From the NCBI GenBank assembly GCA_964611725.1, contig CAZTBA010000001.1, forward strand, positions 1,117 through 65,116: a stretch of 64,000 bases of DNA, given 5' to 3'. The notes beneath the pieces were generated by a model. It had not been told where the DNA came from. It made no database searches and saw only the letters and a program-made list of their open reading frames with translations. This DNA is from an uncultured bacterium. Its GTDB lineage: Bacteria > Latescibacterota > CAZTBA01. Below, one piece after another: positions 14,893 to 57,457 of this stretch (positions within the stretch are counted from its first letter, which is position 1; every line of letters begins with the position of its first letter). The position numbers and the translations under genes were made by a program.

Positions 14893-14972
14893 TTAACAAG
14901 ACCTCCTGCTCCATCCTAAGATGTATTGAAAAAATAGCCCTGTTTGAGACCTCGTTCCAACCTGCCAGAGGT

Positions 14973-16454: not shown

Positions 16455-16494
16455 TAAAAGATTCCCCTTTCTACTCGCTGCCTGTTATCCACAC

Positions 16495-18522: not shown

Positions 18523-18615
18523 GATATATCACCCCTATGTTACGCAAGCACGCCTACCAGGATACTCGCCTATCCTGGCACGTAGGGGCTTATGTATTAA
18601 CAGGACGCTGTTTCA

Positions 18616-19098: not shown

Positions 19099-19147
19099 AT
19101 TAATAACCCTATTTCCTAGAACCGCTGTGTGAACAGCTCAGAATTAT

Positions 19148-38295: not shown

Positions 38296-38970
38296 CTATA
38301 TGGGTCGCACGGCCTGGGCTTGGATGCCCTTACCTGTTGCATAGAGCGGTATAAAGCTTACCTGCATACCCGGCGTTAAAGACCCTGCCACTTGAGATCT
38401 ATGCATGAAGATCTCTGTGCCAGTCCCATCCTGTATGATAAACCCAAATCCTCTCACCGGGTTGTAGAACTTCACCCTACCGGTGCGACGCACACCCTGG
38501 TCGGCAACAAAGACCTCTCTGCTCCCTCTTCCTCCGGTCTTTCTGGCAAAGTGTCCGTCATCCCTGCTGATGCCTTGAGGACGGTGGTAAGTTGGCGCAT
38601 TTGACCAATTGATCCAGAGCTGATCGTGATAGAATCCTGATTTCCCATTTCGGGTTATAACGATGTTCATATCAAACGGTGGCTCTATGGGCACTATGGC
38701 AATGCCGTTCGATGTATCCAGGCTGAACCTCTGACCGTTGCCATTTGCAGAAAAGTTATAACTGTACTCAGCTTTGACGACCTGCTTTCCGTTTACCTCC
38801 TGGAAGAACTTGACGGATAAGCCTTTCAGGTCATCGAAACCCAGCATCATCGCAAAGTCGTGCTGGTAGTGATCCTCTGGATGAGGGAGATCCTTGCCAT
38901 AGGATCTGGCCAACTGGGTGATTTCTGATATGAGCTTCCGCGACATGATGTTTGCATCTTGAGGTTTCAT
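38296..38970 (-). CDS. fusion of an unassigned ~150-aa domain with a C-terminal cold-shock domain
   Basis: GRVKFYNPVRGFGFIIQDGTGTEIFMHRSQV...GMQVSF carries CSD RNP1/RNP2-like motifs. It starts 21 nt after the E1 gene. Confidence 0.7.
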   Translation of the reverse strand: MKPQDANIMSRKLISEITQLARSYGKDLPHPEDHYQHDFAMMLGFDDLKGLSVKFFQEVNGKQVVKAEYSYNFSANGNGQRFSLDTSNGIAIVPIEPPFDMNIVITRNGKSGFYHDQLWINWSNAPTYHRPQGISRDDGHFARKTGGRGSREVFVADQGVRRTGRVKFYNPVRGFGFIIQDGTGTEIFMHRSQVAGSLTPGMQVSFIPLYATGKGIQAQAVRPI

Positions 38971-38991
38971 GATTTATCTCCTGGGTTAATG

Positions 38992-40467
38992 TTACGATTT
39001 AATGCTCTCTGCTTCCACTTCCACCACTTTGCTTCCTGCTTCCATATCAGTGGCCTTAGGGATGGCTCTCGGATTTCCCCTGACGGCTTTGAGGTAATCC
39101 GGAACCAGTTCCAGATCGCCAAGCCCCAGGACACCTTCTGGACTGCAGATCGGGCAGGAAGGATCTGTAGACACTTCTATATGCATCACCTCCCCTTTGA
39201 GTTGATCGTATGCCACGTACCTGCGGATTTTCCTATACGGGTACACGACATTGTGGATCTCTGCCACAGCCAGTGAGGCCATGGTGGCATTGATATGATA
39301 GACCGCAGGCGAGGGCATATCGCGTATATAGCCCCGCTTGATGAGTAAACTTCTCTCCTCCTCACTGGATAGTTCCCAACTTGCCATCTGGGTATCGAAA
39401 ATGGACGCACACTGGAGACACCACTCCCCTACCGGTGGGATCACGCACTCTCCGCTTATGTCTTTGATATTTCCCTCACTGTCCACATCTATGTTTACCC
39501 CAACGTGAACTATTGGGATCAGATACTGCGCCGACAGCCGGTTAGAAACCAGGCGGCTTGCGTGTGTATCCGTGCACACGACAAGAAGGTCACATCCCTT
39601 CAGGGCATCTATGGATTCTCTGTCAAAGAGCGATTGGTCCAGTATCTCAGCTTCAGCCTCAGGCGCAGCCCTTCTGATATTTCTCGCAGCAACTATTACC
39701 TTTGGCGTGCCTCGTTTGGCATCCCAGTTCGTTGCTCCTAAAAGGCGATTGAGGTTTGTCCTCTCTACCCTGTCGTTGTCCACAAGGACCCACTTCCTTA
39801 CGCCCAGACGTGTCAATTCTTCGCATACCACACTTCCTGTTCCACCCAGACCGATAAGGCCGATGCGAAGCTCGCTCAAACGCTTCTGAAAAGCCTCTCC
39901 AAAGGCCATAACCTGCCTGGAAAAGACCTCATCAGACTTTTCTCTACCCGGTTCATTGCCATCCCTGATTCTCACCTCTTCATATGAGCCAAACCTTACA
40001 GCATCTGCCTTTTCTGCTACAGGACCGCCAGCATGTATTCTCCAGATCCTTGCATCTAATGCCTCTCTTGTCATTACCACAGAGCCGTATAAAGTCCCAG
40101 GTATTTTCCTGCCAAGATAGCTGGCCATTCCCCTTTCATAGCTATCATCAATGCCCGAGAATCTCACTACAGGGCTGTTGGACACATGCGTATGGAAGTC
40201 AATCTGTGAAAGCCCCTCCCGATGGGCCATTTTTAGTATATGTTGGTTGATTTCATCCCTTAGCTCCAACCGGCCAGCGCTTTGCTCAACAAATGCATCT
40301 TTGGGAAACAGGATAAAATGCCTGCCCAGAAGATGCACTTCACCTCCCACCTTGCTTATGCCGCAGAGTATGATAGCCATCTGTTCTTTCGCTCTATCAC
40401 TGAAGAGATGATCTTTCAATTTCTGAGCCATCTTTTCTGTCAATATGATCTTGTTCGGCATCGGCAT
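38992..40467 (-). CDS. JAB/JAMM metalloprotease fused to an E1-like (ThiF/MoeB-family) adenylating enzyme
   Basis: JAMM: EQMAIILCG...HTHVSNSPVVRFSGIDD (E, HxH, SxxD). E1: IGLIGLGGTGSVVCEELTRLGV...LVDNDRVERTNLNRL, plus CLQC and CPIC zinc-site pairs. Confidence 0.85.
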   Translation of the reverse strand: MPMPNKIILTEKMAQKLKDHLFSDRAKEQMAIILCGISKVGGEVHLLGRHFILFPKDAFVEQSAGRLELRDEINQHILKMAHREGLSQIDFHTHVSNSPVVRFSGIDDSYERGMASYLGRKIPGTLYGSVVMTREALDARIWRIHAGGPVAEKADAVRFGSYEEVRIRDGNEPGREKSDEVFSRQVMAFGEAFQKRLSELRIGLIGLGGTGSVVCEELTRLGVRKWVLVDNDRVERTNLNRLLGATNWDAKRGTPKVIVAARNIRRAAPEAEAEILDQSLFDRESIDALKGCDLLVVCTDTHASRLVSNRLSAQYLIPIVHVGVNIDVDSEGNIKDISGECVIPPVGEWCLQCASIFDTQMASWELSSEEERSLLIKRGYIRDMPSPAVYHINATMASLAVAEIHNVVYPYRKIRRYVAYDQLKGEVMHIEVSTDPSCPICSPEGVLGLGDLELVPDYLKAVRGNPRAIPKATDMEAGSKVVEVEAESIKS

Positions 40468-40473
40468 AGTCTC

Positions 40474-40944
40474 CTAATCATTCGTTAGAGTTTCCCTCAC
40501 CATGTTAAGAAAAGTCCACAGATTATCTGGTTGTCGGTAATCTGCTGAAGCCTTCCAGCCTCCCTGGCCAGAGGCAATACGCACACAGTACCAATACCAC
40601 CCCGCTTTTGTTAAATTTGGCGCTCCATGATAGCTTCTGCCTGTCAGATGGCTGTCAGAGCCTCCTCCGGTCAGCTGGAACTTCTTGTTAAGGTAAAAGC
40701 CTATGGGCGGTGTGTCTGGATAGCCCTCCGGGAAGACTATCATCAACTTGCACCATCTCTTCTGCCAGCGTTCAGGAAGGGCATATCTGGGGATCACAAG
40801 CCAGTCCCCATTCTCTTCGTCGTATAACACACCGCCGGCTTTTGCAAAGCGTGGTGCGATCATCAAGATCTCATTGTCAATCCGCTGCTTGCGTCGACCT
40901 GGCTGCACTTTACCAGAACCAAATAATGATTCCCAAATTGACAT
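40474..40944 (-). CDS. prokaryotic E2-like (UBC-fold) protein
   Basis: IVFPEGYPDTPPIGFYL...GWYWYCVRI...DNLWTFLNMV: a UBC-like YP(D)xPP flap and a candidate catalytic Cys. Lies between the Ubl and E1 genes. Confidence 0.7.
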   Translation of the reverse strand: MSIWESLFGSGKVQPGRRKQRIDNEILMIAPRFAKAGGVLYDEENGDWLVIPRYALPERWQKRWCKLMIVFPEGYPDTPPIGFYLNKKFQLTGGGSDSHLTGRSYHGAPNLTKAGWYWYCVRIASGQGGWKASADYRQPDNLWTFLNMVRETLTND

Positions 40945-41006
40945 TTACTTTCACCTCCTTTGAAGGGAGCAGGATAGCCTTCTTCGGCCATCCTACTCCC
41001 TAACCC

Positions 41007-41213
41007 TCAACCTTTGATGCGTTTTGGAGAGTCCACGAACATGTCTCCGTCTCTCACATGGACCTTGGAACCGGGTTTGAGGCTATAGTTACCCTCCTTT
41101 GTCTTATTGACCACAATCCGCCCGTCCTCGATCCCGCCAAATTCGCGGATCTCCTGCTCAGAGGTATTTGAAGGTATGCTGACCCTTCTACCATTAATGA
41201 TTGCTGTTGCCAT
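41007..41213 (-). CDS. 68-aa ubiquitin-like (beta-grasp) protein ending in a free C-terminal Gly
   Basis: MATAIINGRRVSIP...EIREFGG...VHVRDGDMFVDSPKRIKG-stop. The pattern resembles ThiS/MoaD/multiubiquitin-type modules. Context is E2 and E1. Confidence 0.65.
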   Translation of the reverse strand: MATAIINGRRVSIPSNTSEQEIREFGGIEDGRIVVNKTKEGNYSLKPGSKVHVRDGDMFVDSPKRIKG

Positions 41214-41214
41214 T

Positions 41215-41877
41215 TTACACCTCCTCTACTGTTTCAACAGTTTCTGCTACCGCTTCCTCAATCACCGATTCATCCTCATCCGGCATCTGGCTGAGGTCAA
41301 TGAACGAGTTCACTGCCTCCATAAGGTCCTGCGAGATCGCCGCCGGCGTCGCCGCAACTTCCACCCTGATCCCCCTCATCCTCAACCGCTCTGCAAGGGG
41401 GACGTAATCGCCATCACCGCTTGCGATTATGGCAATATCTGGCTTGACCTTGTCTGTGTAATCAGCCGCATCCAGGGCTAAAGCGACATCGAAGTTACAC
41501 TTTAGCTTCCCGTTTTCAACAAACTTGGCAAGTTTTGACCGGACGATGAAGCCTCCGCTCCTCAGTGACCGTGCTTTGGCTTCGCCTTCCTCCACCTGCC
41601 TCGGATCAATTCCCATGTAGACGAACGCCTCCAGTAGATGCCTACCCTCGCTCAGGTAGTCCCTGAATCTGAATGGATCCAGACGACGCCCCAGGGCTCG
41701 TAGTCCTGCCTCTATATTGTATAGTTCGATAAAGGCTACTGCTTTTTCCAACTTTGATTCGGTAAACATGCGCATATCATTTCTCCTTTCTTCTGGCAAT
41801 ACTCCTCTTTGGCTGGTAAAAGACCCATCTCCTACCATCCGGAACTCATTAACACTGGCCATCTTAGAATTTCCCAT
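41215..41877 (-). CDS. NYN/LabA-like (PIN-related) predicted RNase
   Basis: VAFIELYN...NFDVALALDAADY...IAIIASGDGDYVPLAERLRMRGIRVEV carry the conserved Asp clusters of NYN/LabA. Start is ATG 41877 behind AGGAGGTG, with 41775 as the alternative. The stop is 1 nt before the Ubl ATG. Confidence 0.75.
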   Translation of the reverse strand: MGNSKMASVNEFRMVGDGSFTSQRGVLPEERRNDMRMFTESKLEKAVAFIELYNIEAGLRALGRRLDPFRFRDYLSEGRHLLEAFVYMGIDPRQVEEGEAKARSLRSGGFIVRSKLAKFVENGKLKCNFDVALALDAADYTDKVKPDIAIIASGDGDYVPLAERLRMRGIRVEVAATPAAISQDLMEAVNSFIDLSQMPDEDESVIEEAVAETVETVEEV

Positions 41878-42040
41878 TAGCTTCTCACCTCCTTTCAAAT
41901 GATTTTCCTTTTACCCTATATAACGACAGATTGGAATTTTTCTTGCAGTCACCTTAGAGCATATTTTTGCATCAATCTGGTTGGTGTCTGATCTCGTTAT
42001 TCTCTACTTTGTATATGTAACGATACTTTGCTTTTTTTCT

Positions 42041-42080
42041 TGCAGAAAGAAAAAGGCTTCCGAAAAACTTCGGAAGCCTT
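42041..42080 (-). terminator. strong Rho-independent terminator ending the CHAT/sigma/anti-sigma operon
   Basis: Minus strand: AAGGCTTCCGAA-gttt-TTCGGAAGCCTT, then TTTTTCTTTCT, 29 nt after the stop at 42109. Confidence 0.75.
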
Positions 42081-42108: not shown

Positions 42109-44307
42109 TTACATTAACTCCTCAATTATTGTTCTAAGAAATTCTCTCTGGAAAAGAAGGTCCCGGAAATCTTCAATTTTCTGCCTTTCAAGTGGTTTTG
42201 AATGCACCGAGCCATTTCGATACTTTTGTACTATCATATGCAATTTGTTTTGGAAACCTTTTTCAAAGAAAAGCTCAGACTTTCTATGAACAAAAACAAA
42301 CAACTTCCCATAGACTTCCCATTTTTCCCTTGATCTCTCACCTGAGGCTTGAGCAAAAGTATTGGCAAGCTCGTGAAGTGTAAGAGACTTCTCACCGGCT
42401 AAGACAAACTGACCTTTGGAGTTCTGGAGAATTTTTAGTGTGACTCCTGACTTTCTTTGTTCTTCGAAGTCTTTAATTAGTATACTCTCAATCTTATTTC
42501 TATCTCCCCTTCGACAACTGAGCCACCTGTCCACTGCCCAAACAATCTTATCGTTTAGAAAATGTTCCACAGCTTTGCTATACATTGCAGCAGCAGCAGC
42601 ATAGTCCTTAGCCTTAACGTTTTTTAGAATCTTATATAAGAATTCCCCAAAAACCAGAGTTCTACCGCTTTCTCCCATAAAGTTTAGATTATCTTCTCCA
42701 CCAACTCCTAGACTTACTATCTCCTGAGTCTTTTGATAATCTTCCTGATAGACTCTGCAAAGATCTCCAGCAATTCCCTTAACCTGCCTACTAAATCCGT
42801 CGCTTTTCTGCTGAAGATCCTCTTCAGAAGCTTTATCTGCATCCCTAACAATGAAAAGGTTCTTAAGTTCACTGATCTCAGTGAGCTTAGCGTCTATATC
42901 TTCTACCTTCTTCTCAATCCTCCCTACCCTCTTCACCAGAGAGACCAGATCTCTGGCAATCTTAGGAAGAATGAACTTTTCTAAAATCTCCAGCCTCTTC
43001 TTTCGCTCTTCTTCAAGCTCCCTTGCCAGTTTTTTTGTCTTTGCCTTTACCGCCACTTCATATAAATCTCTTAAGGGATGGAGGGTGGGGTTTAGTGTTT
43101 TAGCGGTTTCAAAGCTACTTATAACCCTTTCAAGATCTTTGGGAGGAAGCTCGCTAAGATCACGCCCGTATTCTAAGACCATTCCTACACCTGCATAGCC
43201 AACATACCAACCGCTGCGCTCTCTTGTAAGCCGCTCAAAGACAGGTAACGCCTGATCATATTGCCCATTCTTGATATGTCCAATGCCTCTCACTACATCA
43301 GCTAACATCGGGTTGTAGGACTCAATTCTGCTCTCAATATCCTCTGAGAAGTCCTTAATAATGGCCTTAGGAGCCGCTTCCGGCTGGTAACCCCTGATCT
43401 GGAGGCCAGCTTTATATTGCTCAGGATCAACATCACGTAAAGTCTTCACCACAGCCAGAAGCTGCAATGCTTCTGAATCTTCAGGTTCAACTTTGAGCAC
43501 AGAGGCAAGTAAATCCTCGGCAATCACATAGTTTCCATGATCGATGGTCTTCCTCACGTCGATAAGGCGTTCCTCAACAGGAAGGTCCCTTATCGTGAGA
43601 GCAACCTCACCAATTCTTTCACCTTCTTTTTCAATCATGAATGTATAGGAACCAAATTTCATTTCACGGAAAGTTACTCGACCATGCCGGTCGGTTCGTC
43701 CCGCGTTTTTCTTTACCTGTCCTGTCTCCTGGAACCAAACATCAACCCCTCGGACCGGCTGGTCAGTCTGGAAGTCTTTTATATAGATTCTGACTTCTAA
43801 TTCCTCCAGGGTCTTTTTACTTACCCTTACCTGAACAAGATAATCACCAAGCCTCTTTTTGACTCCTTCAAGGCCACCCGATGGAACCGGTGCTCCACGC
43901 ACCATCTCAAGCTCTTTTAATCCGCCTCCCAAGACAACTTCACCGGTAGTCTCGATTACCTTTAAAAGGCCGTCTACAATACCAATAACTATTTGAAAAG
44001 AGCTTTCTTTCTCTCTGTTGAGTGCCTGCCTAATCAATCCCATAATCTTCACGTTCTGAGCCGGTTCAACCGAAATCTCAGCTATATGACTTAGAGCTTC
44101 TTGGAGGACTTCCACCTCTCCCCTACAGTATTCACATGTTTCTATATGTGCTTCTACAAGATCCCGGTGCTTCCCCTCAAGGAAACCATCGACATATTGC
44201 CCAATCTCCTCTTCAGTAAGGCAAAATATCCCTTTCTCTGAGGACGTTTTCCTCTCAGCATATTCTCTAAGGAGCTTATCGATATCGACGTTGTCCAAGT
44301 ATTTCAC
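42109..44307 (-). CDS. cytoplasmic anti-sigma-like protein: N-terminal zf-HC2, beta-sandwich, TPR/coiled coil, C-terminal HEPN-like domain; start uncertain (44364/44307/44298)
   Basis: HIETCEYCRGE is the H-x3-C-x2-C anti-sigma zinc finger, found right after the sigma gene. VRIYIKDFQTDQPVRGVDVWF..GRTDRHGRVTF is CarboxypepD_reg-like. C-terminal QKYRNGSVHSKP has the RNxxxH motif. No TM segment seen. Confidence 0.6.
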   Translation of the reverse strand: MKYLDNVDIDKLLREYAERKTSSEKGIFCLTEEEIGQYVDGFLEGKHRDLVEAHIETCEYCRGEVEVLQEALSHIAEISVEPAQNVKIMGLIRQALNREKESSFQIVIGIVDGLLKVIETTGEVVLGGGLKELEMVRGAPVPSGGLEGVKKRLGDYLVQVRVSKKTLEELEVRIYIKDFQTDQPVRGVDVWFQETGQVKKNAGRTDRHGRVTFREMKFGSYTFMIEKEGERIGEVALTIRDLPVEERLIDVRKTIDHGNYVIAEDLLASVLKVEPEDSEALQLLAVVKTLRDVDPEQYKAGLQIRGYQPEAAPKAIIKDFSEDIESRIESYNPMLADVVRGIGHIKNGQYDQALPVFERLTRERSGWYVGYAGVGMVLEYGRDLSELPPKDLERVISSFETAKTLNPTLHPLRDLYEVAVKAKTKKLARELEEERKKRLEILEKFILPKIARDLVSLVKRVGRIEKKVEDIDAKLTEISELKNLFIVRDADKASEEDLQQKSDGFSRQVKGIAGDLCRVYQEDYQKTQEIVSLGVGGEDNLNFMGESGRTLVFGEFLYKILKNVKAKDYAAAAAMYSKAVEHFLNDKIVWAVDRWLSCRRGDRNKIESILIKDFEEQRKSGVTLKILQNSKGQFVLAGEKSLTLHELANTFAQASGERSREKWEVYGKLFVFVHRKSELFFEKGFQNKLHMIVQKYRNGSVHSKPLERQKIEDFRDLLFQREFLRTIIEELM

Positions 44308-45073
44308 CCCCTCTACCCATGATCTTCTTAAGCTGCTCTCTGGCCCGTGTAAGGTGAGAACCAACAGTTCCTACCGGTATGTTAAGCCCTAAGGCGATCT
44401 CCTTATAGCTCTTCTTCCCTTCGTAGTGGAGTTCCAATATCCTTCGCTGAAGCGGCTCTAATTTACTCATTGCTTTATGCAGGAGGTCAAATAGTCTTTC
44501 CTCTTTGCCAACATCCTCCTCAATATCGATCAAGGTCTGTTTTTCCTTCGATTCTTGCTCGTAGTCATTCATAACTCGCAATCGCCGTGCAATTTTCTTC
44601 TTTTCGTCCAGAGCAAACCACCTTGCCCTTTGGTAAAGCCAGGTCGTAAACTTGATTGTCCAGGCATATTCTCTAAGTCCTTTAAAATTATGGCTAATTA
44701 ACTTTTCAAGATAGAATTCTCCTACAATATCTTCAATAAATTCTTGACTCTGATCCTGATATATTTTCCAAACCGCTGACAAAATAAGTTTTTGGAAATG
44801 ACTTACAAATTCCTCCCAGGCTTTCTCATCTCTATTAAGGCAGCGATCGAGGATGTCCTTGATTTGAACTGCTTCCCAAAGTTCATCCTTTGCCTTTTTG
44901 TCGCCATTCCCACATCGCTCAATCGACCTTTCAACATATAAATATCCCTGATACTTCTGTAACAGAGCTTCTTTGGCCTGACAATCACCACTGAAAGTCT
45001 GATCAATAAGCTCAAAATCTCTCTCTAAAGGCAGATTCAAATTTACCCTCTCAGAAATCCAAAAGTCTGACAA
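44276..45073 (-). CDS. sigma-70 family (ECF-like) RNA polymerase sigma factor with a ~75-aa N-terminal extension; non-ATG (TTG) start in the track
   Basis: Region 2: EKAWEEFVSHFQKLILSAVWKIY...FTTWLYQRARW. Region 4: LEPLQRRILELHYEGKKSYKEIALGLNIPVGTVGSHLTRAREQLKK. Confidence 0.8.
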   Translation of the reverse strand: MSDFWISERVNLNLPLERDFELIDQTFSGDCQAKEALLQKYQGYLYVERSIERCGNGDKKAKDELWEAVQIKDILDRCLNRDEKAWEEFVSHFQKLILSAVWKIYQDQSQEFIEDIVGEFYLEKLISHNFKGLREYAWTIKFTTWLYQRARWFALDEKKKIARRLRVMNDYEQESKEKQTLIDIEEDVGKEERLFDLLHKAMSKLEPLQRRILELHYEGKKSYKEIALGLNIPVGTVGSHLTRAREQLKKIMGRGGEILGQRRYR

Positions 45074-45183
45074 AATAGAATACTATTCTACAATTCTCTC
45101 TTACTTTTATCGTTTCCCCTTTTCCAAAGACAGATCACCTATTCTAAAAGCAAAAGCGTTGATAGTCGAGTTTATTTGAGACC

Positions 45184-46905
45184 TTAATTCCCCTCACGGA
45201 ACCACTTTGTATCAGCCCACTCTCTTCTTAGCTGCTCAAAAACCTGCCTATACCTTGCTTTTATACCTGAGTCTGAGGTTAAATTCGTAAGACGAAAGAT
45301 ATATTGGGCCACAGAGTCTGCTAAAACATGTCCTGCCAATTCTCTTGTCTGGTCGATAGTAAAAGAAGAGGAAAGTTGCTTTTCAAGGGCTTTTCCTATG
45401 TGCTCTTTATCAAAAAGCTGGAGTATAAAGGCAGCACGTAAGGGCGGCCTTGTATATCCCACACAAAGTGCATCAGCAAGATAATGTATAGCCCAGGTGT
45501 TGCCGCTATTTTTCTCTGCCCAATATCGCATCTCATAGCCGTTGTGAATTGATACAAGCAGGAGAAAAGTCAAGGACTGCTCATCAATCTCTATCCCACC
45601 CTCCATAACACGGCGTGCCTGATCCAACAGATTTCCCTTATCAATCCCAGGATATTTACAACCTCTCTTTACCCAGTTATCTTTTGCTGCTATAATCTTT
45701 TTCAATGTGGACAATTGTCCAGCAGCCCTTTTCCTTCTTCGAGTAAGCGGCTTCAGGGTAAACGCAGGATCACCATAAAGCATATAAGGAGCCCAGAAGA
45801 GCTGGTCAAAACCGTAGGAATCCTGAATAGATTTCCTTGCCATTCTCAGAGAACTGCCCATGCTATTGCCTGAAAAAAGGCTCTTATAAAATTCCACAGC
45901 AAAATGTGCACTTGGTTTATCGAGTATTTTGCAGAAGGTTCCGATGTAGTGCTTCACACCTGACATTGCGAAAGCGCTGGCCAATCCAAATGACTTGGCG
46001 TCATATATAAACTGTTCCTCCCAGTTAGAATGGGTCCTCTTATAATCCTTCATAGTACCACTATCGCAGGAATTTGAGAACACAAAAAGAGGTGCTGGAG
46101 AAATATTACTGATCTCAAAACAAGGGCATATCTCCTCTACCTCTCCACCTTTCATTGACAGGACCCAACCGTTTCTTTCAGGTTCCTCTGGATCAAAGAC
46201 AGAATGGCCTATGAAGTGCACGATATGGTAATTATCACCAACCTCACAGATAAGATCAGACAAATTACGCTTGCCGCTTAAGGTTTTTACTTCAATTTGC
46301 CATTCCCCTTCCGCTGCCGCTTCTTCAAGCTCCTGTTTGATACTCTCAGCTTCGTTTCTTGCTTTACCAAGACCACCTGTGGGATCAGCAATAATGAGCA
46401 TCCTCAATTTCTGCCGGGATACCTTCTTTTCGGTTACCTTGCTCTTGACAGGTGTACCAATATATCGACCCATATTGAATTTGAGACAGAGAAACTCTTC
46501 TCCGTCAAACAGAAGTTCCCAAGGGATGTTAAGGAGATTACCAGACTCTGAACTAATCCAAAGTGAAAGATCTGTGTTTTTGCCCTTTCCAAGAAGTTCT
46601 TTCAGATGGATCGGCAAGAAATGGTTAAACATAGCTCTACCAACAGTCTTCATCTCCCCTAAAACTTCGCCTGTCTCCTGCATTAGTCCGTCCGAGGGTA
46701 AACCTCTTAAAGTTTCCTGGAGATTAAAGCTACCCATTGTTTCCGTTGCTTTCTCACAAAGTTGCCTTATAAGATCTGATCTAACCGGACAATCTGTGTC
46801 AAGAAAGGTTGTTGATGATCCCTTCTGCATTACGACAAAGTTAAGATTATCCACATCTCTTCGGGTGACAAGGATCTCCAATGACTCACGTTGCTTCTTA
46901 GACAT
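45184..46905 (-). CDS. CHAT-domain (caspase-fold) protease with unassigned N- and C-terminal domains
   Basis: LRMLIIADP...YHIVHFIGHS (catalytic His context)...LFVFSNSCDSG (catalytic Cys context)...YIGTF..WAPYMLYGDP. Confidence 0.8.
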   Translation of the reverse strand: MSKKQRESLEILVTRRDVDNLNFVVMQKGSSTTFLDTDCPVRSDLIRQLCEKATETMGSFNLQETLRGLPSDGLMQETGEVLGEMKTVGRAMFNHFLPIHLKELLGKGKNTDLSLWISSESGNLLNIPWELLFDGEEFLCLKFNMGRYIGTPVKSKVTEKKVSRQKLRMLIIADPTGGLGKARNEAESIKQELEEAAAEGEWQIEVKTLSGKRNLSDLICEVGDNYHIVHFIGHSVFDPEEPERNGWVLSMKGGEVEEICPCFEISNISPAPLFVFSNSCDSGTMKDYKRTHSNWEEQFIYDAKSFGLASAFAMSGVKHYIGTFCKILDKPSAHFAVEFYKSLFSGNSMGSSLRMARKSIQDSYGFDQLFWAPYMLYGDPAFTLKPLTRRRKRAAGQLSTLKKIIAAKDNWVKRGCKYPGIDKGNLLDQARRVMEGGIEIDEQSLTFLLLVSIHNGYEMRYWAEKNSGNTWAIHYLADALCVGYTRPPLRAAFILQLFDKEHIGKALEKQLSSSFTIDQTRELAGHVLADSVAQYIFRLTNLTSDSGIKARYRQVFEQLRREWADTKWFREGN

Positions 46906-47454
46906 AAAGCTTCACCACCAGGAGTTTAGGTTTGGACAGAACTAACGGAATTTATTTGAGATTTGGTCAGAATTCCTTCCTCAACTGTTCAATAAAGGAT
47001 TAGAATAAGGCCTCACAGCCTTTGCCTTCCTAAGTATGGAAAATTCCCATTTTCTGCTGCCAGATATAATGCGATCCAGGATAGGAGTTTGGATAATAAC
47101 GGAACAATAAACAACGTTAAGATCAATTGATAGACACTTAATTCCTATTTAACAATGATTTATATTCAATCAAGCCTTTTGACATATTTTCACGTTGAGC
47201 GAGTTTGTCGGCCCCGGGAAATTGCTTCGCAGCCAAAAATCCAGAGTTTACCCAGGCGTGAGAGTACTTTTGAGTTGACCAATGCACGTTGTGTGGCCAA
47301 AAAGGTCTTCTGTGGGAGACCTGTAAGATTGGATTCCCGTTAGTGTTGTTTTCTGTTCCAATGATTGTCACAGTCCAACTACTGCTTAGCTTCACTTTCT
47401 CAGCACCCGTGCAAAACTATCGATAGAATCAAATGGTAATTGATCATAAGACTA

Positions 47455-48543
47455 TTATCCTGTTCCACCTTCGTAGAGAGCCACAATTTCTTTCTCACTC
47501 AATGGACGACTGTATATGCGAGCGTCGTCCATAGCTCCAGTTAAAGAGGGATATGGGGCAAATGGAGGCTTTATAGCAGTGTTACCAACCAATACCATGT
47601 ACGTTGAGCTAACCTCTGGGATAATCGGTGTGGAGGTCTGTGCTTTTAAGATACCATTGATATAGATTTCTAGTTCTTTATCTCTATAAACTCCGCAGAC
47701 AAAGGTCCAAATTTCTGGTATTTCTGCATAGATCTTCGTGTGGTTATTGGATTCGTCCATTACTATGAGGCTTATCTCTCTTTTTCCCCTTCTAAAATCG
47801 AGCCTTAGGCTGTAAGGATCCCTGCCACCAAAATCCTGGCTTATTTGGCCAAGAATGGTGTATTCTGCCTCCAAGGTCGCATCACATTTCACCCAAGCAC
47901 ACAAAGTAAAGCCACTCCCAGAATAAGCCAAGCTGGCAGATCCTGGGATCGAAACGGCTTCATCTGAATTTCCTGTGAAATAAGCGGCCTGTCCTATAAC
48001 TCCTTCACCAAAACTAACATTCCCAAGAGATGTCCCATCATTTCCATTCCCAGAATAGTCTTTGAAGTCCGCATCGAAGGGCAAATACAGCACCAACCCG
48101 TCCTCCACCTTTGGTGGTGGAACAAAAACTCCTATAATCTCTGCACTACCAGTTTGCCGTGCCAATTGAATATTGACACTAACTGTATCCCCAGGGAATA
48201 CGTTGGCAGTTGCCGATCCGCTATAGGTTAGAATTTCTCCCGCATCAAATGCATTCAGTATAAACACTCGGTTCTGCCCTGTTGGAATGTCTCTTACAAT
48301 CCCCACAGCCAGTGAATCCCCCTGCATATCCAAATCTTGACGTATTGTATCCATATCTGCCGCTGTAACCAACGCTTCGACCCTCGCCAATACTGTTGTC
48401 AGAACAGCTTTCGGTATTCGGACACTAATTTTCGCTGCACCGAAGCCTTCTTGGGGTTCAACTACGCTTTTTTCACAGCCGGTGGTGACCAGAAATGCAA
48501 TCATGGCCAGCACCAACATTAAGCTATACCGTTTGCGGAGCAC
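47455..48543 (-). CDS. probable lipoprotein with a LamG/concanavalin-A-like lectin domain
   Basis: Signal/lipobox MLVLAMIAFLVTTGC. LamG_3-like LVLYLPFD..DYSGNGNDGT...GFTLCAWVK...GAMDDARIYSRPLSEKEI. Confidence 0.75.
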   Translation of the reverse strand: MLRKRYSLMLVLAMIAFLVTTGCEKSVVEPQEGFGAAKISVRIPKAVLTTVLARVEALVTAADMDTIRQDLDMQGDSLAVGIVRDIPTGQNRVFILNAFDAGEILTYSGSATANVFPGDTVSVNIQLARQTGSAEIIGVFVPPPKVEDGLVLYLPFDADFKDYSGNGNDGTSLGNVSFGEGVIGQAAYFTGNSDEAVSIPGSASLAYSGSGFTLCAWVKCDATLEAEYTILGQISQDFGGRDPYSLRLDFRRGKREISLIVMDESNNHTKIYAEIPEIWTFVCGVYRDKELEIYINGILKAQTSTPIIPEVSSTYMVLVGNTAIKPPFAPYPSLTGAMDDARIYSRPLSEKEIVALYEGGTG

Positions 48544-48795: not shown

Positions 48796-49893
48796 TCATT
48801 TGTTTTCTTCAAATGATTTTTGTATCAGAAGCTTGGCAGTTTGAAACCTCTCAAGGCTGTCAATTGCAAGCTCAACGTCCCCTACTCCCCAGTGCCCAAT
48901 TTTCGAAACATCACGGGCATATTCAGGTGGACTCTCCAAATCCAAATAATTCAACTTCAACCAAACTCGAAGTCCACTTTTTTGAATATGAACACAACAA
49001 AAAATGTCTTTACCATAGCTATATCTGATATACATAGCAAGATACTTTTTTTGAACACCAGTCGGGCCAAGCTCTCTACAAAACCTGTCAACTGTTCGAA
49101 ATAATTCCACAACTTCTTGTGGTCTCCCTTTTATATGATGTTCCTCACCGTATTCTTTGCCTCTTGCTCTACCGGGAGGTACAGACTCTACACCAGTTTC
49201 AGCACTAGGAGGAATCTCTATTTCCGATGTTTGTGCCCATAGCCTCTTTAGGGCTTTTTTCACTTGCATCGGTTTAATGCTATCATTTCCAAGAGTTGAG
49301 CGTATAAGCCTGATTAGAGTGTCCGGAGGTTCCATAAAGAGTTTGTCCAAAGCCTTTCTCACTTTTCCTGTAGTGAAAACCTGCTCCCCAATCTCGTCAA
49401 GGAGACCTTTAGCCATCGCATCACGTGAGAAACGCGCAAATTGCCCTGCAACCTGCTGGACTGACATACCCTCAGTCTCCTTTGGGTCAAGAGAAACTTC
49501 AAAAAGCAACTTATCAGGGGCCTCTGCTTTCTCAGTGCTGTGATAGACTCTGTATGTAACACCATTAGTGAGAATGCACCATTCAATACCTGCATTGGCG
49601 GCATAGCCTACTACCTGTGTGATCGATTTAACATCTGTTAGTGGATCATTTAATGGTTTGGCTTCTATGAATAGAACTGACTTACGGTTTATTTTAGGTG
49701 CATAGTCAACCGATTTTCCGTCTATCGTCGGATACTCAAGCTCAACTTCATCTGGATCCGTCAAGTCCCATCCAAGAGCTTCCAATAGTGGATCTATGAA
49801 TATTGTTCGTGTTGGATACTCCTTTAGTTCAGCTTTTCGATGCCTATCCAACTTTGCTCGAAGGATTTCAATGCATGAGATTATAGCGTCCAT
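48796..49893 (-). CDS. HsdR_N-like PD-(D/E)XK domain protein with a DUF5655-like C-terminus
   Basis: TRTIFIDPLLEALGW...VDYAPK...VLFIEAKPL is the type I restriction R N-terminal-type nuclease motif (D...EAK). Confidence 0.65.
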   Translation of the reverse strand: MDAIISCIEILRAKLDRHRKAELKEYPTRTIFIDPLLEALGWDLTDPDEVELEYPTIDGKSVDYAPKINRKSVLFIEAKPLNDPLTDVKSITQVVGYAANAGIEWCILTNGVTYRVYHSTEKAEAPDKLLFEVSLDPKETEGMSVQQVAGQFARFSRDAMAKGLLDEIGEQVFTTGKVRKALDKLFMEPPDTLIRLIRSTLGNDSIKPMQVKKALKRLWAQTSEIEIPPSAETGVESVPPGRARGKEYGEEHHIKGRPQEVVELFRTVDRFCRELGPTGVQKKYLAMYIRYSYGKDIFCCVHIQKSGLRVWLKLNYLDLESPPEYARDVSKIGHWGVGDVELAIDSLERFQTAKLLIQKSFEENK

Positions 49894-49929: not shown

Positions 49930-52900
49930 CTACGGGTGCGTCAAGAGACGCCTTGCGTAGTTTCCTTCCTGTCGCATAAGGAGATATTGTGTTTCCAACT
50001 CCATCCAACCTCTGTCGCCGCGATCAGGAATATCGTCAAGCGAAGTCCGAGTTAAGACAAAACCATCAAGCGTTATTCTCTTTGTCTGAAAAGCTGGGGC
50101 ATTACTCAATTCTGAAAGCTTTCTCAGCGCTTCGAACTTATCCTCGTTTCCCACCAACCCTCCATGGTGAAGCCCATGCGGATCGATAAATCGGACATGG
50201 ATCCTACCAGTGCTTTCGTCTTTGATCCATAATATGAAGTCCGGGTAGAACCCACTGCGATGGAAAAGCTCAATGCCGGACTTCGGGAAATTCCTAAGTA
50301 GATACGCGGTATATCCACTGAACGGGATTTGACTGCTATTTGACTGCCAAAATGCTTTTAAGTCCCTTACTAGCTGAATTTCCGCGGGAACGAGTGCCGG
50401 TGGTCGTACTGATACATCCTTTTGCCATTTCTTACCACCTTGAGCTAAGATCGGATTGAAGAGATGCCAATCGATGTAAAACCTTGGCAAAGGTTCAGGT
50501 GCATCAAATAGATCCAAACCCCTCCCCAGTAACGCTTCTATTTGTTCTAGAAATTCACCTGATTTTACCCGAACCTTGTACTGTTTGAGCACGCGCTCAT
50601 CCGCCTCCAACCATCCTAGCTCGATGTGTTGACTTTCAGCTTCTCTTTCTTTGTAGCGGACAAAGCGATCCAGATAAGTTTTCAATAATTGCCCTGCAGC
50701 ATGCTGTAGGTGATCCGGGACTTTTTCATCCTCTTCAGGTATGCGCAGTCTGCAATGTTTCTGAAGTATTTCAGGTAACGCCCCTCGTCTTACATAAACG
50801 TTGCCATAGCCCCGGGTTTGCTTATAGCGTACTAGATCTGCGTAAAGGAGATCTAAGTCCAAAAGGTCTAAATACTGTGTCCTAGAGAAATCAATTTCGA
50901 CAGCCGTACCTGCCCGTCCTCGGGTCGCCACACCCCCGGTTACACTGTCCCGCAACCCTATCAGATGAGGCACTAAATCTATTGTGACAGTAATGCCCTC
51001 AGACTCAAGAGTCCAGGTCAAAGCTCCAGTGTCAAAGCTACCTTCTTTCTTCGGGACTGGCAGGTCATCTTTCGGCCAGGGTGTCCTGAGGTCCACATTT
51101 ATTGTGAACTCTTTGCCGATATCTTCCCGTCCGAGCATATTTTGGAAGCTGTCTATATAGTCAGCGTTCCAGCCAAAGATGTACAATGTCTCCAAGTGTT
51201 CAATTCCTTCCGGATGACCATTATGCGTCAGCAGCGCCTCCGTCCGCTTGAGGCTCATGTCCTTACCTTTTAGGCGAACGCCGCGGCCAAACAACTGCAT
51301 AATTTGTGGACCTTCGCCTCTTCCCATATTTAGAAGCCCCATTGACGATACACGCCAACTCGACCATCCTTCGATGAACTTCTTGGCACCGATCAGTATA
51401 TTGGTCAGTGAGTCCGCACGGTTAACTTGCTCAAACTGCGATCCTACGAAACGGTCTTCCTGAACTTCTATGTCCAGGTGCCTGTCCAGATATTTCCGAA
51501 ATTCGGATACATCCCCAATGTTAATCACAGCGAAATATGGGCTGTTTTGCGAATCTCCTGCCGAAGCTCGAAGACCCAACTCCCCTTCGACATTCTTTAT
51601 CTCCCATACTTCCAAAGCACCTCCCCCATGGAACACCTTGTCTATGATCTGGCCGTAGACCATCTCGGGGTCTTTCCCGTACAGGTGCGAGATATAAGGT
51701 GCAAACAGGTCAAGCTCCGTTTCCGTATCAGTAAAGCCACTGTTTCCACTGAGAATACGACCTATGACCTCCGTGGCCCAATTCTGCTCCTCTAAGACGC
51801 GCCGCAAAAATGCCACAACCTCCGCCACATCACTACGCCGCTGACTATCACGTATATACATCGCATTTACACTACTACCCAGCATCACCCAAAGTGGCTT
51901 TTCTATATTGTATGGTCGGTATTCCTCGGACTTCTGCTCGTAGAGCAACAATTGTTGATAGTATGTCAACAGGCCTCCGAGCAGTAACTCATGAGCACGA
52001 CCTGCTGTACCCCGCGATAGGTTTAGGACATTGAATTTCTTCCCATAACCATCCCCGTAGAAATGAGCGTAGGAGTAATCGAACAGGATAGCTTTGCCAT
52101 ATTCCTGTGACAGCTCCTTCTGGTCGCGTCGACGGCTCGCAGCACCAATAGCCTGTGCAAATGTTGCACTATATTCCAGTAGGAAGCCGCCACGACTTAG
52201 ATAGCGCTGGCGTGATTTCCAGACCTGAGCTTCACTGCCGGTTCCTTTGTGCCCCTCGTCTACCAAAATGAGGTTGTTCTCGCCGAGGTCGTCCAAGACA
52301 ACGCTGACACCCTCTCGCGAAGGCTCCTCAGATAGCTTGTGGATTTCGATAACCTTGACTACCGGCCCAAACAGGCTCGATGCCGTAGGGTTTTCAATAA
52401 AGACACATGCCTCAATCCCACTGGCTTCAAACTCCGTGATGTGCTGCCGCGATAGTCCCTCGTTTGGTGTAATAAGTAGTATGTTGTCGAATGTCCGCCA
52501 CCCGTCCGTCCGCGGAACTATTGATTCCGGGTGACGGCTATGTTCCAGGTAGTAAAGCACCTGCCACACATTCACATGCAACAGCAGTGTCTTACCACTC
52601 CCTGTGGCCATGAAAAACGCCAGCCGCCGCAGGTTGTCCATCTCGAACTCCGGGAAATCCCGCAGCTCCGAGTCATCTTCCCGCAGCTCACAGAGAAATA
52701 CATTCAGATCAGCAAGCAGTTCTCTCGAATTTCGTGTGAGGCGATCAAGAAATATTTCGGTGTAGAGGAGGGCCAGATACTGGAAGTACCGAAAAGCCTT
52801 AAACTCAGAGCGAATACGCACAAGCCGCGTCTCATATTCCATCACCCGCTTGTCATATACCCGCAGTTCATCCTCGCTCAGGAGGAGACCCGTTTGTTTC

Positions 52901-53046
52901 ACAAGCTCTTCGAAGAAGTAGCTCTGCCCATTAGCAGAAGGTCCTTCTTCCGCGAGCCGCAGCATTGACTTTAACTCGTCAAAACTTTGTGCCCCGAGCA
53001 AATGGTGAAGATACCGAGCCAAGACTGTGTATTCTTCGAGCCTCAT
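49930..53046 (-). CDS. Type III restriction Res-like SF2 helicase/nuclease subunit
   Basis: Motif I MATGSGKT, motif II LILVDEGHKG, a later QLFGRGVR arginine finger, and a C-terminal YPDFILWI...FIDPHG nuclease-like motif. 1-nt stop/start overlap with the methylase gene. Confidence 0.8.
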   Translation of the reverse strand: MRLEEYTVLARYLHHLLGAQSFDELKSMLRLAEEGPSANGQSYFFEELVKQTGLLLSEDELRVYDKRVMEYETRLVRIRSEFKAFRYFQYLALLYTEIFLDRLTRNSRELLADLNVFLCELREDDSELRDFPEFEMDNLRRLAFFMATGSGKTLLLHVNVWQVLYYLEHSRHPESIVPRTDGWRTFDNILLITPNEGLSRQHITEFEASGIEACVFIENPTASSLFGPVVKVIEIHKLSEEPSREGVSVVLDDLGENNLILVDEGHKGTGSEAQVWKSRQRYLSRGGFLLEYSATFAQAIGAASRRRDQKELSQEYGKAILFDYSYAHFYGDGYGKKFNVLNLSRGTAGRAHELLLGGLLTYYQQLLLYEQKSEEYRPYNIEKPLWVMLGSSVNAMYIRDSQRRSDVAEVVAFLRRVLEEQNWATEVIGRILSGNSGFTDTETELDLFAPYISHLYGKDPEMVYGQIIDKVFHGGGALEVWEIKNVEGELGLRASAGDSQNSPYFAVINIGDVSEFRKYLDRHLDIEVQEDRFVGSQFEQVNRADSLTNILIGAKKFIEGWSSWRVSSMGLLNMGRGEGPQIMQLFGRGVRLKGKDMSLKRTEALLTHNGHPEGIEHLETLYIFGWNADYIDSFQNMLGREDIGKEFTINVDLRTPWPKDDLPVPKKEGSFDTGALTWTLESEGITVTIDLVPHLIGLRDSVTGGVATRGRAGTAVEIDFSRTQYLDLLDLDLLYADLVRYKQTRGYGNVYVRRGALPEILQKHCRLRIPEEDEKVPDHLQHAAGQLLKTYLDRFVRYKEREAESQHIELGWLEADERVLKQYKVRVKSGEFLEQIEALLGRGLDLFDAPEPLPRFYIDWHLFNPILAQGGKKWQKDVSVRPPALVPAEIQLVRDLKAFWQSNSSQIPFSGYTAYLLRNFPKSGIELFHRSGFYPDFILWIKDESTGRIHVRFIDPHGLHHGGLVGNEDKFEALRKLSELSNAPAFQTKRITLDGFVLTRTSLDDIPDRGDRGWMELETQYLLMRQEGNYARRLLTHP

Positions 53047-56000: not shown

Positions 56001-56201
56001 CCTTTGAAGCGCTTCCTTCTCCTCTTTTGTGATACTGGCATATGCCTCGTCTACCTCATGAGGCAATTGCTCGCTCAAAAAGACCTCTACTTCGTCCCGT
56101 TTCAGTTTCAGCAGCCGATATATGCCAAAGTCGAGATCGGCTGTATCGAACTGGAACAGCTTCCTGAGGAGATCCTGAAATTCTGTAAAGTAATCTTCCA
56201 C
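53046..56201 (-). CDS. large N6-adenine/N4-cytosine DNA methyltransferase (beta class, Type III Mod-like) with a ~470-aa N-terminal extension
   Basis: Motif IV CIYIDPPYNTG precedes motif I ILDFYAGSGTTADA. Confidence 0.85.
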   Translation of the reverse strand: MEDYFTEFQDLLRKLFQFDTADLDFGIYRLLKLKRDEVEVFLSEQLPHEVDEAYASITKEEKEALQREVERLAERAKEEIEPNAITLTGEVKPEYHESNIRVVRELVEEYEAKRQRLETAQAGEAQKAEVFNHLYNFFSRYYEEGDFIPLRRYGARETYAVPYQGQEIFLHWANNDQHYVKTAEYFKDYAFNVDTVSGQYRMRFTLMEASVPRDNTKGDRRYFFPRPDCATFDESEQLFILPFEYRLPTGEEIEKYGKNNKGQEQILEESLDAISNIVPVETLRVILMRDQRNEKERADGKPELPLLLTRLRHFTRRQTSDYFVHKNLRGFLHHELGFYIKDHILHLEDIEGDIESRQRMIRVLRRLGEQIIEFLAQVEETQKRLFEKKKFVLQTDYLLPIKHVPTKLWPEVLGNEAQRTEWQHWFALEPEKNLFNAKGIVNEEFLVTHPTLVVNTQHFDRDFVLSLLEALPFEDLEEAMDGLLIQGENYQALQLLEERYREQVECIYIDPPYNTGEDEFPYKDRYQHSSWLCALEERLQLGHILLSEGGACFISIGNEECSNLRQLMDAKWGADCFKSAIVRRRGIKSVQAQFDTIDRLNQGYDYVLMYSKNPTAQFKKLMVPKVLSDEEEEETVVTGGWNKHWRGTDRPTMRYPLFGETPETGQWRWAPERSEKAIRNYQQLLSELATENPTQEAIDEWVRGKEEQRGEKVDLLRLPSSGKPEHYVPPSGKKLASDLWVDVKVNGSHQLIALFGEKVFDNPKPVDLVKRICDFLCDPEGTILDFYAGSGTTADATISFNRKSENDARFILVEMGSYFDTVMLPRVAKVIYSSEWSKGQPGRLPTDEELERTPRLVKILRLESYDDALHNIVAESVYEQSHPRDNAYKEVVGEDEYRLRYLVKLPLDSSDTMLNLAKLNYPFDYTIEVLTEDGTHQRGVDLIETFNYLYGLRVNSIERWVNPDDIRGKDASGRQYQVIKTTNRDQDKRIMVIWRDMSDFDPGLERSFLEARLGEQGQAYDQVLINGDTAVPGVESLDPMFKMLMEQKEGR

Positions 56202-57360: not shown

Positions 57361-57457
57361 TTTTGTATAATTATAGCATAGAAAAAGGCCCCTGTCAAAG
57401 GGAAAATGGCCCTTTTCAGAGGGGTAAAATTATACAAAACTATTACTTTTGTATAGT
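57361..57457. repeat. cluster of recombinase-arm repeats, including a lox/dif-like site (11-bp inverted arms, 7-bp spacer)
   Basis: ttttgtataatt (57361-72) is the exact reverse complement of aattatacaaaa (57428-39). ATTATACAAAA-ctattac-TTTTGTATAGT spans 57429-57457, with arms 10/11 complementary. Confidence 0.5.

Follow-up and report, generated by a model that had tools for sequence, protein, structure and literature searches.

A CHAT protease encoded with an ECF sigma factor and a soluble zinc anti-sigma factor: a candidate sigma switch without CRISPR

The release of a sigma factor by a protease is a recently recognised output of bacterial immunity, known from the Craspase, CalpL/T/S and DdvA/S systems. 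To our knowledge, the trigger in the known cases is always linked to CRISPR or the protease is fused to the anti-sigma factor. Here we describe a locus that encodes a CHAT protease, a sigma factor of the extracytoplasmic function (ECF) type and a zinc-binding anti-sigma (ZAS) factor. It lies in a 64-kb stretch of DNA (the window; 64,000 nucleotides (nt) of contig CAZTBA010000001.1, GenBank assembly GCA_964611725.1) from an uncultured bacterium of the Latescibacterota. Together with its relatives, the locus suggests a caspase-like protease that is free-standing and has a dedicated soluble zinc anti-sigma factor as its partner. We put the odds slightly in favour (about 55%) of the three window genes being a protease-controlled sigma switch, that is, a cytoplasmic version of a three-gene ECF sigma/zinc anti-sigma/CHAT module.

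Craspase, a type III-E CRISPR system, comprises Cas7-11 (gRAMP), the TPR-CHAT protease Csx29, Csx30, Csx31 and the sigma factor RpoE (CASP-sigma); Csx29 cleaves Csx30, and cleavage of this inhibitor frees the sigma factor (PMC10028731). Like Craspase, the window locus encodes a CHAT-family protease together with an ECF-like sigma factor and a predicted sigma-binding inhibitor. In contrast to Craspase, there is no Cas7-11, CRISPR array or Csx31 (the 64 kb contain no spaced repeats or cas domains, and also gave no cas gene, tRNA or Rfam match), and activation cannot be RNA-guided. The protease does not have the N-terminal TPR arm of Csx29: no TPR profile matched it, and its N-terminal 90 amino acids (aa) belong to the core of the module family. 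The inhibitor is a ZAS anti-sigma factor of a large family of its own, the homologues of which are all ZAS-type, and is set apart from Csx30 by description. Matches of the CHAT profile to PDB sequences came down to a single weak one, 8tl0 ("CHAT domain-containing protein", E 2e-4). The initial annotation of this DNA described the arrangement as a Craspase-like wiring without CRISPR. The lack of CRISPR in the 64 kb stands, and kinship by descent does not: because of the missing TPR arm, the ZAS-type anti-sigma factor and the single weak PDB match, the resemblance is one of logic.

The closest list of parts is that of DdvA-DdvS of Myxococcus xanthus, which brings together a ZAS domain, an ECF sigma factor and a CHAT domain and controls a defence island; self-cleavage by CHAT has only been proposed (PMC11506125). 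DdvA spans the membrane as one polypeptide, its TPR-CHAT region is periplasmic and lacks three active-site helices, release of the sigma factor needs RseP, and DdvA-like proteins have been reported only in Myxococcota and one Comamonas species (PMC11506125). The window shares the C-H-C-C zinc anti-sigma domain, the ECF sigma factor and CHAT with DdvA-DdvS. In contrast to DdvA, its protease and anti-sigma factor are encoded by separate genes and neither has a transmembrane helix, so that the locus is not of the DdvA type. In addition, the CHAT domain of the canonical relatives described below is predicted to be cytoplasmic, whereas that of DdvA is periplasmic.

In CalpL-CalpT-CalpS, the type III CRISPR SAVED-Lon protease CalpL is activated by cyclic oligoadenylate and cuts the anti-sigma factor CalpT, which releases a sigma-containing fragment (bioRxiv 10.1101/2024.05.08.593097). 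The tripartite set of protease, soluble anti-sigma factor and sigma factor is the same as in the window, but the CalpL protease is Lon-type and belongs to another clan, and the window has neither a SAVED domain nor a cyclase. The SAVED-CHAT/PCaspase/PCc-sigma system of Haliangium ochraceum also has a CHAT protease and a sigma factor in one defence operon. Its CHAT, however, is activated by cyclic triadenylate (cA3) through SAVED and cleaves a second caspase, which cleaves the sigma factor, and there is no ZAS anti-sigma factor.

With RsrA, ChrR and the N-domain of RsiW the window anti-sigma factor shares an H-x3-C-x2-C zinc domain that is encoded directly after an ECF sigma gene. Those proteins, unlike it, are under the control of redox chemistry or of site-1/site-2 proteolysis at the membrane. 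We know of no classical soluble ZAS factor that has a CHAT partner, a beta-sandwich with an invariant-Arg linker, or a fusion to TPR, coiled-coil and YRNxxxH regions. Genes for CHAT-domain proteins have been seen near those of ECF54 sigma factors, proteolytic control has been suggested, and this group is said to lack an anti-sigma factor (PMC8999054). In contrast, a ZAS anti-sigma factor is always present in the loci described here. The free-standing module was not described in the literature that we searched, which led only to DdvA, Craspase, SAVED-CHAT, CalpL and the remark on ECF54, although the ECF classification supplement or the ECF Hub group descriptions might mention it. The canonical sigma/anti-sigma/CHAT family appears to be undescribed.

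The three genes of the window

The first gene encodes a member of the CHAT family (clan CD). The 573-aa protein matched the CHAT profile PF12770 with 90.2 bits (cutoff 24), and Peptidase_C25, the gingipain family, matched it too (27.8 bits, cutoff 23). The catalytic dyad is intact, with His234 in HFIGHS and Cys280 in SNSCDSG; in an alignment with 20 CHAT relatives Cys280 was invariant and His234 was kept in at least 90%. As a whole the protein is a singleton: its next-best match had 40% identity over 53% of the length and covered the protease domain only. The C-terminal ~190 aa had no relative among the related loci, the fetched proteins or PDB, and nothing in Pfam even at E up to 10. The coordinates of all features are collected in Table 1.

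The second gene encodes an ECF (group 4) sigma factor, with sigma-2 and sigma-4 regions only. TIGR02937 (sigma70-ECF) matched it with 82.8 bits (cutoff 42.9) and Sigma70_r4_2 with 58 bits (E 6e-16, cutoff 25.7). The longest open reading frame (ORF) begins 110 nt past the CHAT stop. The start chosen by the gene caller is 45040 (TTG, with GAGAGGG ahead of it), which gives a protein of 254 aa and a gap of 143 nt. The start codon is uncertain between 45073 and 45040, and every candidate is a TTG. The sigma factor bears an N-terminal extension of ~55 aa (44880-45073) with a second helix resembling sigma-2.1, GDCQAKEALLQKYQGYL, and an N-terminal match to HTH_16 (E 2e-5). This extension is absent from ~50 homologous module sigmas, and most of ~60 aligned module sigmas start at residue ~37-66 of the window sigma factor. 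An 11-mer, TCTCAAATAAA, occurs on the minus strand at 46950-46960, 56 nt upstream of the CHAT start, and at 45170-45182, just past the CHAT stop and upstream of the sigma gene. The chance expectation for such a pair is roughly 0.02-0.05 and its significance is uncertain; the intergenic regions of the window had no other motif in common.

The longest ORF of the third gene runs to 751 aa. Its likely start is the TTG at 44298, which stands 5 nt from the ribosome-binding site GGGGGTGA and yields 729 aa. This start agrees with the database gene call, and the protein is identical to a database entry (P0121). It overlaps the sigma stop by 23 nt on the same strand. The protein carries the motif HIETCEYC, that is, H51-x3-C55-x2-C58, and C26 completes a C-H-C-C zinc site of ZAS class I. 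The zf-HC2 profile matched just above its gathering score (22.5 bits, cutoff 22.2), and the N-terminal region aligned with the anti-sigma domain of RsiW. By homology the 729-aa protein is a true ZAS-type anti-sigma factor.

The first 237 aa fall into the zinc anti-sigma domain, the conserved segment IETTGE, a linker holding Arg134 and a beta-sandwich (aa ~143-237). In an exhaustive HMMER search they matched ~130 proteins of 210-245 aa end to end. A single-sequence AlphaFold2 model of the 729-aa protein had a predicted local distance difference test (pLDDT) score of 44.7 and was usable for the beta-sandwich and part of the TPR region. The predicted beta-sandwich had a pLDDT of 70-87; the linker had the lowest pLDDT and no secondary structure. 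Helices were predicted in the extension at residues 241-402, 408-483 and 492-528. The TPR/coiled-coil extension had no match in more than 80 related loci, the ~238-aa anti-sigmas of which are without both parts, and a word-based search among 5.8 billion clusters found no full-length relative of the 729-aa protein other than itself. Pfam at E up to 10 gave just a sub-threshold match to DUF6705 (aa 548-640) on the anti-sigma sub-domains. The large size of the protein is explained by fusion of what reads as an ordinary ~238-aa anti-sigma factor to 490 aa of TPR, coiled coil and YRNxxxH domain.

No transmembrane helix was found in CHAT, the sigma factor or the anti-sigma factor by a 19-residue Kyte-Doolittle scan (overall maximum 1.34), and none of the three proteins matched PADLOC. 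An intrinsic terminator closes the three-gene unit.

These results bear out what the initial annotation had read from the three genes: a 573-aa CHAT gene with intact His and Cys contexts lying 110 nt ahead of a sigma gene (143 nt by the gene-caller start), a sigma gene with a 3' end that overlaps the start of the HIETCEYC protein, and a partner that is unusually large and has no transmembrane helix.

Table 1. Positions of the three genes, their parts and neighbouring features in the window
Feature	Positions	Strand	Remarks
CHAT protease gene	46905..45184	minus	573 aa; Pfam CHAT 2e-25, Peptidase_C25 2e-6
CHAT N-terminal ~90 aa			conserved region ahead of protease domain
CHAT domain, aa 88-379	45769-46644	minus	
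CHAT catalytic residues	His234 46204-46206; Cys280 46066-46068	minus	
CHAT orphan C-terminal domain, aa ~390-573	45187-45738	minus	
ECF (group 4) sigma gene	45073..44276	minus	longest ORF, 265 aa, TTG; TIGR02937, Sigma70_r4_2
Anti-sigma fusion gene	44298..42109	minus	729 aa, TTG start, no predicted membrane helix
Anti-sigma module, aa 1-237	43588..44298	minus	zf-HC2, RsiW alignment, end-to-end homologues
Invariant Arg134 of linker	43897-43899	minus	
Extension part 1: TPR aa ~240-405, coiled coil aa ~408-528	42715..43581	minus	TPR_14 3e-6, predicted helices
Extension part 2: rare all-alpha C-terminal domain, aa 534-729	42112..42699	minus	YRNxxxH motif
Motif Y-R694-N-G-S-V-H699	42202-42219	minus	
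Intrinsic terminator	42053..42080	minus	29 nt past anti-sigma stop; 12-bp stem, 6 GC pairs, then TTTCTTTC
Two 32-nt direct repeats, TGCAAG-N16-CGTTA	42014-42045 and 41917-41948	minus	repeat family D1
NYN nuclease	41215-41898	minus	
68-aa protein ending KRIKG, ubiquitin-like?	41007-41213	minus	
Prok-E2_E protein	40474-40944	minus	
ThiF-type E1	38992-40467	minus	
Cold-shock-domain protein	38296-38970	minus	weak bacterial-HORMA match
LamG/ConA-like lipoprotein	47455-48543	minus	lipobox VTTGC
HSDR_N/DUF5655 protein	48796-49893	minus	matches PADLOC candidate PDC-S18
Type III restriction enzyme (res)	49930-53046	minus	
Type III methyltransferase (mod)	53046-56201	minus	PADLOC E 1e-138 / 1e-130 for mod/res pair
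Short phage-type integrase	56740-57336	minus	198 aa

A conserved module in related loci

We fetched 80 genomic loci of the closest CHAT relatives and annotated them with profiles built from the window proteins. Linkage counts refer to 84 non-redundant loci, and sigma counts to 990 kb around the 80 genomic CHAT relatives. The three closest CHAT matches each had a sigma gene, a zf-HC2 gene or both just upstream. The order sigma, anti-sigma homologue, CHAT was found in 51/84 loci, most of the others being without upstream DNA, and an ECF sigma gene lay within 2.5 kb upstream on the same strand in 48 of the 62 loci that have at least 1.6 kb of upstream sequence. Nearly all ECF sigma genes in the 990 kb (56/59) directly precede a homologue of the N-terminal 240 aa of the window anti-sigma factor, the same sigma-adjacent position as in the window. 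The anti-sigma module (aa 1-237) directly matched 61 ORFs that sit between sigma and CHAT in the related loci, and the window sigma factor, residues 1-240 and CHAT each retrieved the counterpart genes in the 80 genome loci.

By these matches, all three window proteins are homologous to the three components of the module. The adjacency of sigma, anti-sigma and CHAT genes is far beyond chance, and it runs against the prospect, raised with the initial annotation, that CHAT homologues elsewhere would be unlinked to sigma/anti-sigma pairs. The comparison supports the view that the three genes form a functional unit, and strongly supports the central idea of a sigma/anti-sigma pair that is wired to a CHAT protease in the absence of CRISPR. 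In the relatives the anti-sigma gene mostly shares 4 nt with the CHAT gene or is no more than 20 nt away from it, and this spacing points to coupled expression. The module is carried by Thermodesulfobacteriota, Nitrospirota, Omnitrophota, Planctomycetota (Scalindua), Binatia and other phyla.

The canonical anti-sigma factors are small (median 238 aa, maximum 324), and 63 of 64 are soluble. Of 65 anti-sigma sequences, 59-62 retain the zinc ligands and all have Arg134. Arg134 is the most conserved residue of the family, with a hydrophobic residue before it and Gly, Ser or Ala after it. Canonical CHAT proteins have a conserved N-terminal region of ~90 aa and the protease domain from the start, with no N-terminal signal peptide. 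In 65 of 72 CHAT relatives the protease domain is followed immediately by a single hydrophobic helix (hydropathy above 1.6), beyond which the C-terminal region varies greatly. The predicted topology places the protease in the cytoplasm and the variable domain outside. Many CHAT relatives bear additional N-terminal cyclase, kinase or TPR modules.

Genes 3' of canonical CHAT encode mostly CsgG/Glucodextran_B-domain proteins, FadL/TodX outer-membrane proteins and TPR proteins. In the loci L001-L087 the typical followers are a CsgG/Glucodextran_B protein of ~680 aa and a FadL/TodX protein of ~440 aa, which suggests a conserved five-gene envelope cluster. The canonical module looks like an envelope-signalling device with an outer sensor, a cytoplasmic protease, a soluble anti-sigma factor and a sigma factor.

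The window copy departs from this module in several ways. Its gene order is CHAT, sigma, anti-sigma rather than the canonical order. The sole other case of CHAT-sigma-anti-sigma among the 84 loci (L083) has a gap of 2.6 kb and is probably a different arrangement. Canonical members have a membrane CHAT with an extracytoplasmic C-terminus and an anti-sigma factor of ~210-300 aa; in the window the anti-sigma factor has 729 aa, and CHAT (maximum hydropathy 1.18) has a soluble orphan C-terminal domain instead of the membrane helix. The window copy appears to be a divergent, fully cytoplasmic member of the module. Beyond what was initially observed there is, then, a large canonical family with an invariant candidate cleavage site, and a unique, apparently cytoplasmic and effector-fused derivative in a defence island.

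A possible mechanism and its rivals

In the switch that we favour, the anti-sigma domain would hold the ECF sigma factor at rest. A cytoplasmic cue, read by the C-terminal domain of CHAT or by the TPR arm of the anti-sigma factor, would activate CHAT, which would cut the anti-sigma factor in the flexible linker after Arg134. The sigma factor would be freed directly or after degradation of the remnant and would turn on its target genes, with the downstream NYN/Ubl (ubiquitin-like)/E2/E1 operon as the obvious candidate. This cut would also split off the TPR/coiled-coil/YRNxxxH part, which might serve as a second output, an effector. Among the canonical relatives, the signal would run from an extracytoplasmic sensor to a membrane-anchored cytoplasmic CHAT and on to a soluble anti-sigma factor.

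Cleavage after Arg is known for several proteases of clan CD (separase, gingipain R, metacaspases). We infer that CHAT may cleave the anti-sigma factor, with Arg134 as the candidate site. CHAT is taken as the signal-activated protease and the anti-sigma factor as its substrate because canonical CHAT proteins have a receiver-like topology, their genes are tightly coupled to those of the anti-sigma factors, the flexible linker holds an invariant Arg, several clan CD proteases are specific for Arg and the window CHAT also matches the gingipain profile, and there are precedents in Csx29-Csx30, in CalpL-CalpT and in the self-cleavage proposed for DdvA, a ZAS anti-sigma factor fused to CHAT. The predicted topology of canonical CHAT, together with the soluble anti-sigma factors, is as expected for a sensor-protease with a cytoplasmic substrate. 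In the window copy, with no membrane helix predicted in CHAT or the anti-sigma factor, the sensor would have to be cytoplasmic. Both the N- and the C-terminal domain of CHAT had initially been proposed as sensors. The unique C-terminal 190 aa may have that role, whereas the ~90 aa at the N-terminus are conserved, belong to the core of the family and are not a free sensor.

Several points weigh against this reading. A cut at Arg134 leaves the anti-sigma domain intact, so that a further step, such as a degron or a conformational change, is required to release the sigma factor. The extension of the anti-sigma factor and the C-terminal domain of CHAT are orphans, and the roles suggested for them come from context. 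Both the cleavage and the protein complexes are proposed from sequence. The repeat that might serve as a promoter downstream of the trio (see below) has no cross-species support. Canonical relatives adjoin envelope genes (CsgG-like, FadL-like), not defence genes, and therefore only the island context argues for a defence role of the window copy. Lastly, no second case of the window arrangement turned up in the searched data, with the possible exception of the locus L092, and the window copy could be a recent, non-functional rearrangement.

The serious rival, of three considered, reverses the roles: the anti-sigma factor would be the sensor, through its zinc site, beta-sandwich or TPR arm, and CHAT would be a co-expressed output protease, for example an executioner of abortive infection. 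Soluble ZAS anti-sigma factors that sense redox stress are established (RsrA, ChrR), CHAT and caspase proteases act as executioners in other defence systems, and the window anti-sigma factor has interaction modules of its own (TPR). It also fits that canonical CHAT lies downstream in the operon of a sigma/anti-sigma pair of the autoregulated type, where ECF targets often sit. However, membrane-spanning CHAT relatives with a variable outer domain have the architecture of a signal receiver, the invariant linker Arg has no obvious role in a redox-sensor model, and the 4 nt shared by the CHAT gene and the anti-sigma gene suggest a stoichiometric complex. We regard this alternative as unlikely, though it deserves to be taken seriously.

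It is also conceivable, though we judge it very unlikely, that the locus is a decayed or accidental rearrangement of the envelope module that occurred on entry into the island and no longer works as a unit. Its gene order is unique among the 84 loci, as are its soluble CHAT and its long anti-sigma factor, and very large databases hold no full-length relatives of the anti-sigma factor or of the C-terminal domain of CHAT. On the other hand, all three ORFs are long and intact and have good ribosome-binding sites, the dyad, the four zinc ligands and Arg134 are kept, and a strong terminator ends the unit. The same locus was also recovered independently in a second assembly, and the L092 fragment, which covers the coiled coil and the C-terminal domain, suggests that the long form is not a one-off.

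Least probable of all is that CHAT trims the ~55-aa N-terminal extension of the sigma factor (activation of a pro-sigma) while the anti-sigma factor acts independently: the extension is lacking in ~50 homologous sigmas, the CHAT gene lies directly ahead of the sigma gene in the window, and in Haliangium a type III-B caspase-family protease cleaves PCc-sigma into defined products, but the sigmas have no conserved candidate cleavage site, the start codon of the window sigma factor is uncertain, and trimming of an extension that is unique to the window cannot account for a conserved module in which the linkage to CHAT runs through the whole family.

If CHAT does cleave the anti-sigma factor, as in the switch that we favour, ECF sigma factors would have a new and general mechanism of activation, with the invariant Arg as a precise candidate site. 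The window copy would then show an envelope module converted to a cytoplasmic switch in a defence island through a swap of the sensor and the fusion of an effector. A bolder version of the same switch is a CRISPR-independent cytoplasmic infection sensor, in which a phage cue would lead CHAT to cut at Arg134, and that one cut would both let the sigma factor fire the tandem TGCAAG-N16-CGTTA promoters of the adjacent NYN/Ubl/E2/E1 operon and unleash a new HEPN-like YRNxxxH toxin; the canonical operons would be a new, widespread transmembrane route in which a caspase-like protease replaces the site-1/site-2 cascade. We consider this extended version distinctly improbable as a whole.

The YRNxxxH domain and the surrounding island

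An exhaustive HMMER search of billions of proteins found relatives of residues 534-729 only in P0125, P0202, P0251, P0253, P0271 and L094-L097. They are free-standing or form the C-terminal end of proteins of ~490 aa, and Y, R, N and H of the motif Tyr-Arg-Asn-x3-His are invariant across all of them. The neighbour sets of these relatives are SMODS and DUF6602; TIR_2 and HicAB; an HTH protein and a PDDEXK nuclease; GmrSD and an integrase; and a methylase and Schlafen-AlbA2. Thus, in the few contexts examined, this rare unannotated family adjoins defence genes.

An R-N-x3-H motif ahead of terminal helices is a feature of HEPN RNases. In the window protein R694-N-G-S-V-H699 conforms to the HEPN-type R-x4-6-H pattern, and terminal helices follow it. 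No HEPN match was found for the domain in Pfam, PADLOC or PDB sequence searches, and a profile search against PDB gave noise only. An AlphaFold2 model from a 6-sequence alignment had a pLDDT of 61.8, and Foldseek with this model found nothing in PDB with E below 1. The domain is an unconfirmed candidate for a HEPN-like effector or sensor, at the level of the motif.

The possible second instance of the long fused form is a 1.1-kb contig (L092; GCA_011774785.1, JAACAM010000466.1). A fragment on it matches residues 439-716 of the anti-sigma factor (29% identity, E 7e-28), in an alignment that spans the coiled coil and the C-terminal domain, and its ORF runs off the contig end. Proteins of ~345-490 aa that end in a YRNGxAH domain, a small unannotated family, were seen in L090, L096 and L097, beside SMODS and DUF6602, GmrSD and an integrase, and a methylase and Schlafen-AlbA2. 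These may be a new defence-associated family in their own right.

By its predicted gene content, the stretch around the trio is a defence or mobile island. Within this island, which holds no CRISPR, the trio has a Type III restriction system on one side and the NYN/Ubl/E2/E1 operon on the other. The stretch has a lower G+C content than the rest (42-44% vs ~48% elsewhere), and all its genes are on the minus strand. The gene order is integrase, Type III mod, res, PDC-S18-like, LamG lipoprotein, the trio, NYN, the 68-aa protein, Prok-E2_E, E1, cold-shock and a TraG/TraD-like ATPase. The genes at 38296-41898, directly downstream of the trio, look like a bacterial ubiquitin-like conjugation defence operon. 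The end with the integrase and the Type III genes probably marks one edge of the island; beside the integrase, at 57381-57423, there is a 21-nt tandem repeat.

The 200 nt that separate the terminator from the NYN gene contain two direct repeats at a distance of 97 nt, and each reads CTGCAAGAAAAA..N..CGTTA(T/C)ATA on the minus strand. The pattern TGCAAG-N16-CGTTA was found at just these two places in the window, a count that is circular as a statistic. Its layout is that of Bacillus-type ECF promoters. As a hypothesis only, the repeats are candidate ECF-type promoters of the NYN/Ubl/E2/E1 operon. The pattern was not enriched upstream of homologous sigma genes, and a search for a common ECF promoter upstream of 58-59 homologous sigma genes (bipartite k-mers; AAC/CGT-type patterns) gave no enrichment over shuffles.

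We considered the LamG lipoprotein as a split-off outer domain of CHAT and rejected it. It has no similarity to the outer domains of the relatives, and a 549-nt gap separates it from CHAT, upstream of which it lies. It is probably unrelated to the trio.

Outside the island the chromosome carries gas-vesicle, sigma-54 and PAS-kinase genes. The gas-vesicle cluster (10181-21274), which lends the host a Desulfobacterota-like character, contains three GvpL/GvpF genes, a GvpN-like AAA_5 ATPase (12128-13129) and a CDC48-like AAA ATPase (19148-21274), with PAS histidine kinases and a sigma-54 activator on its flanks.

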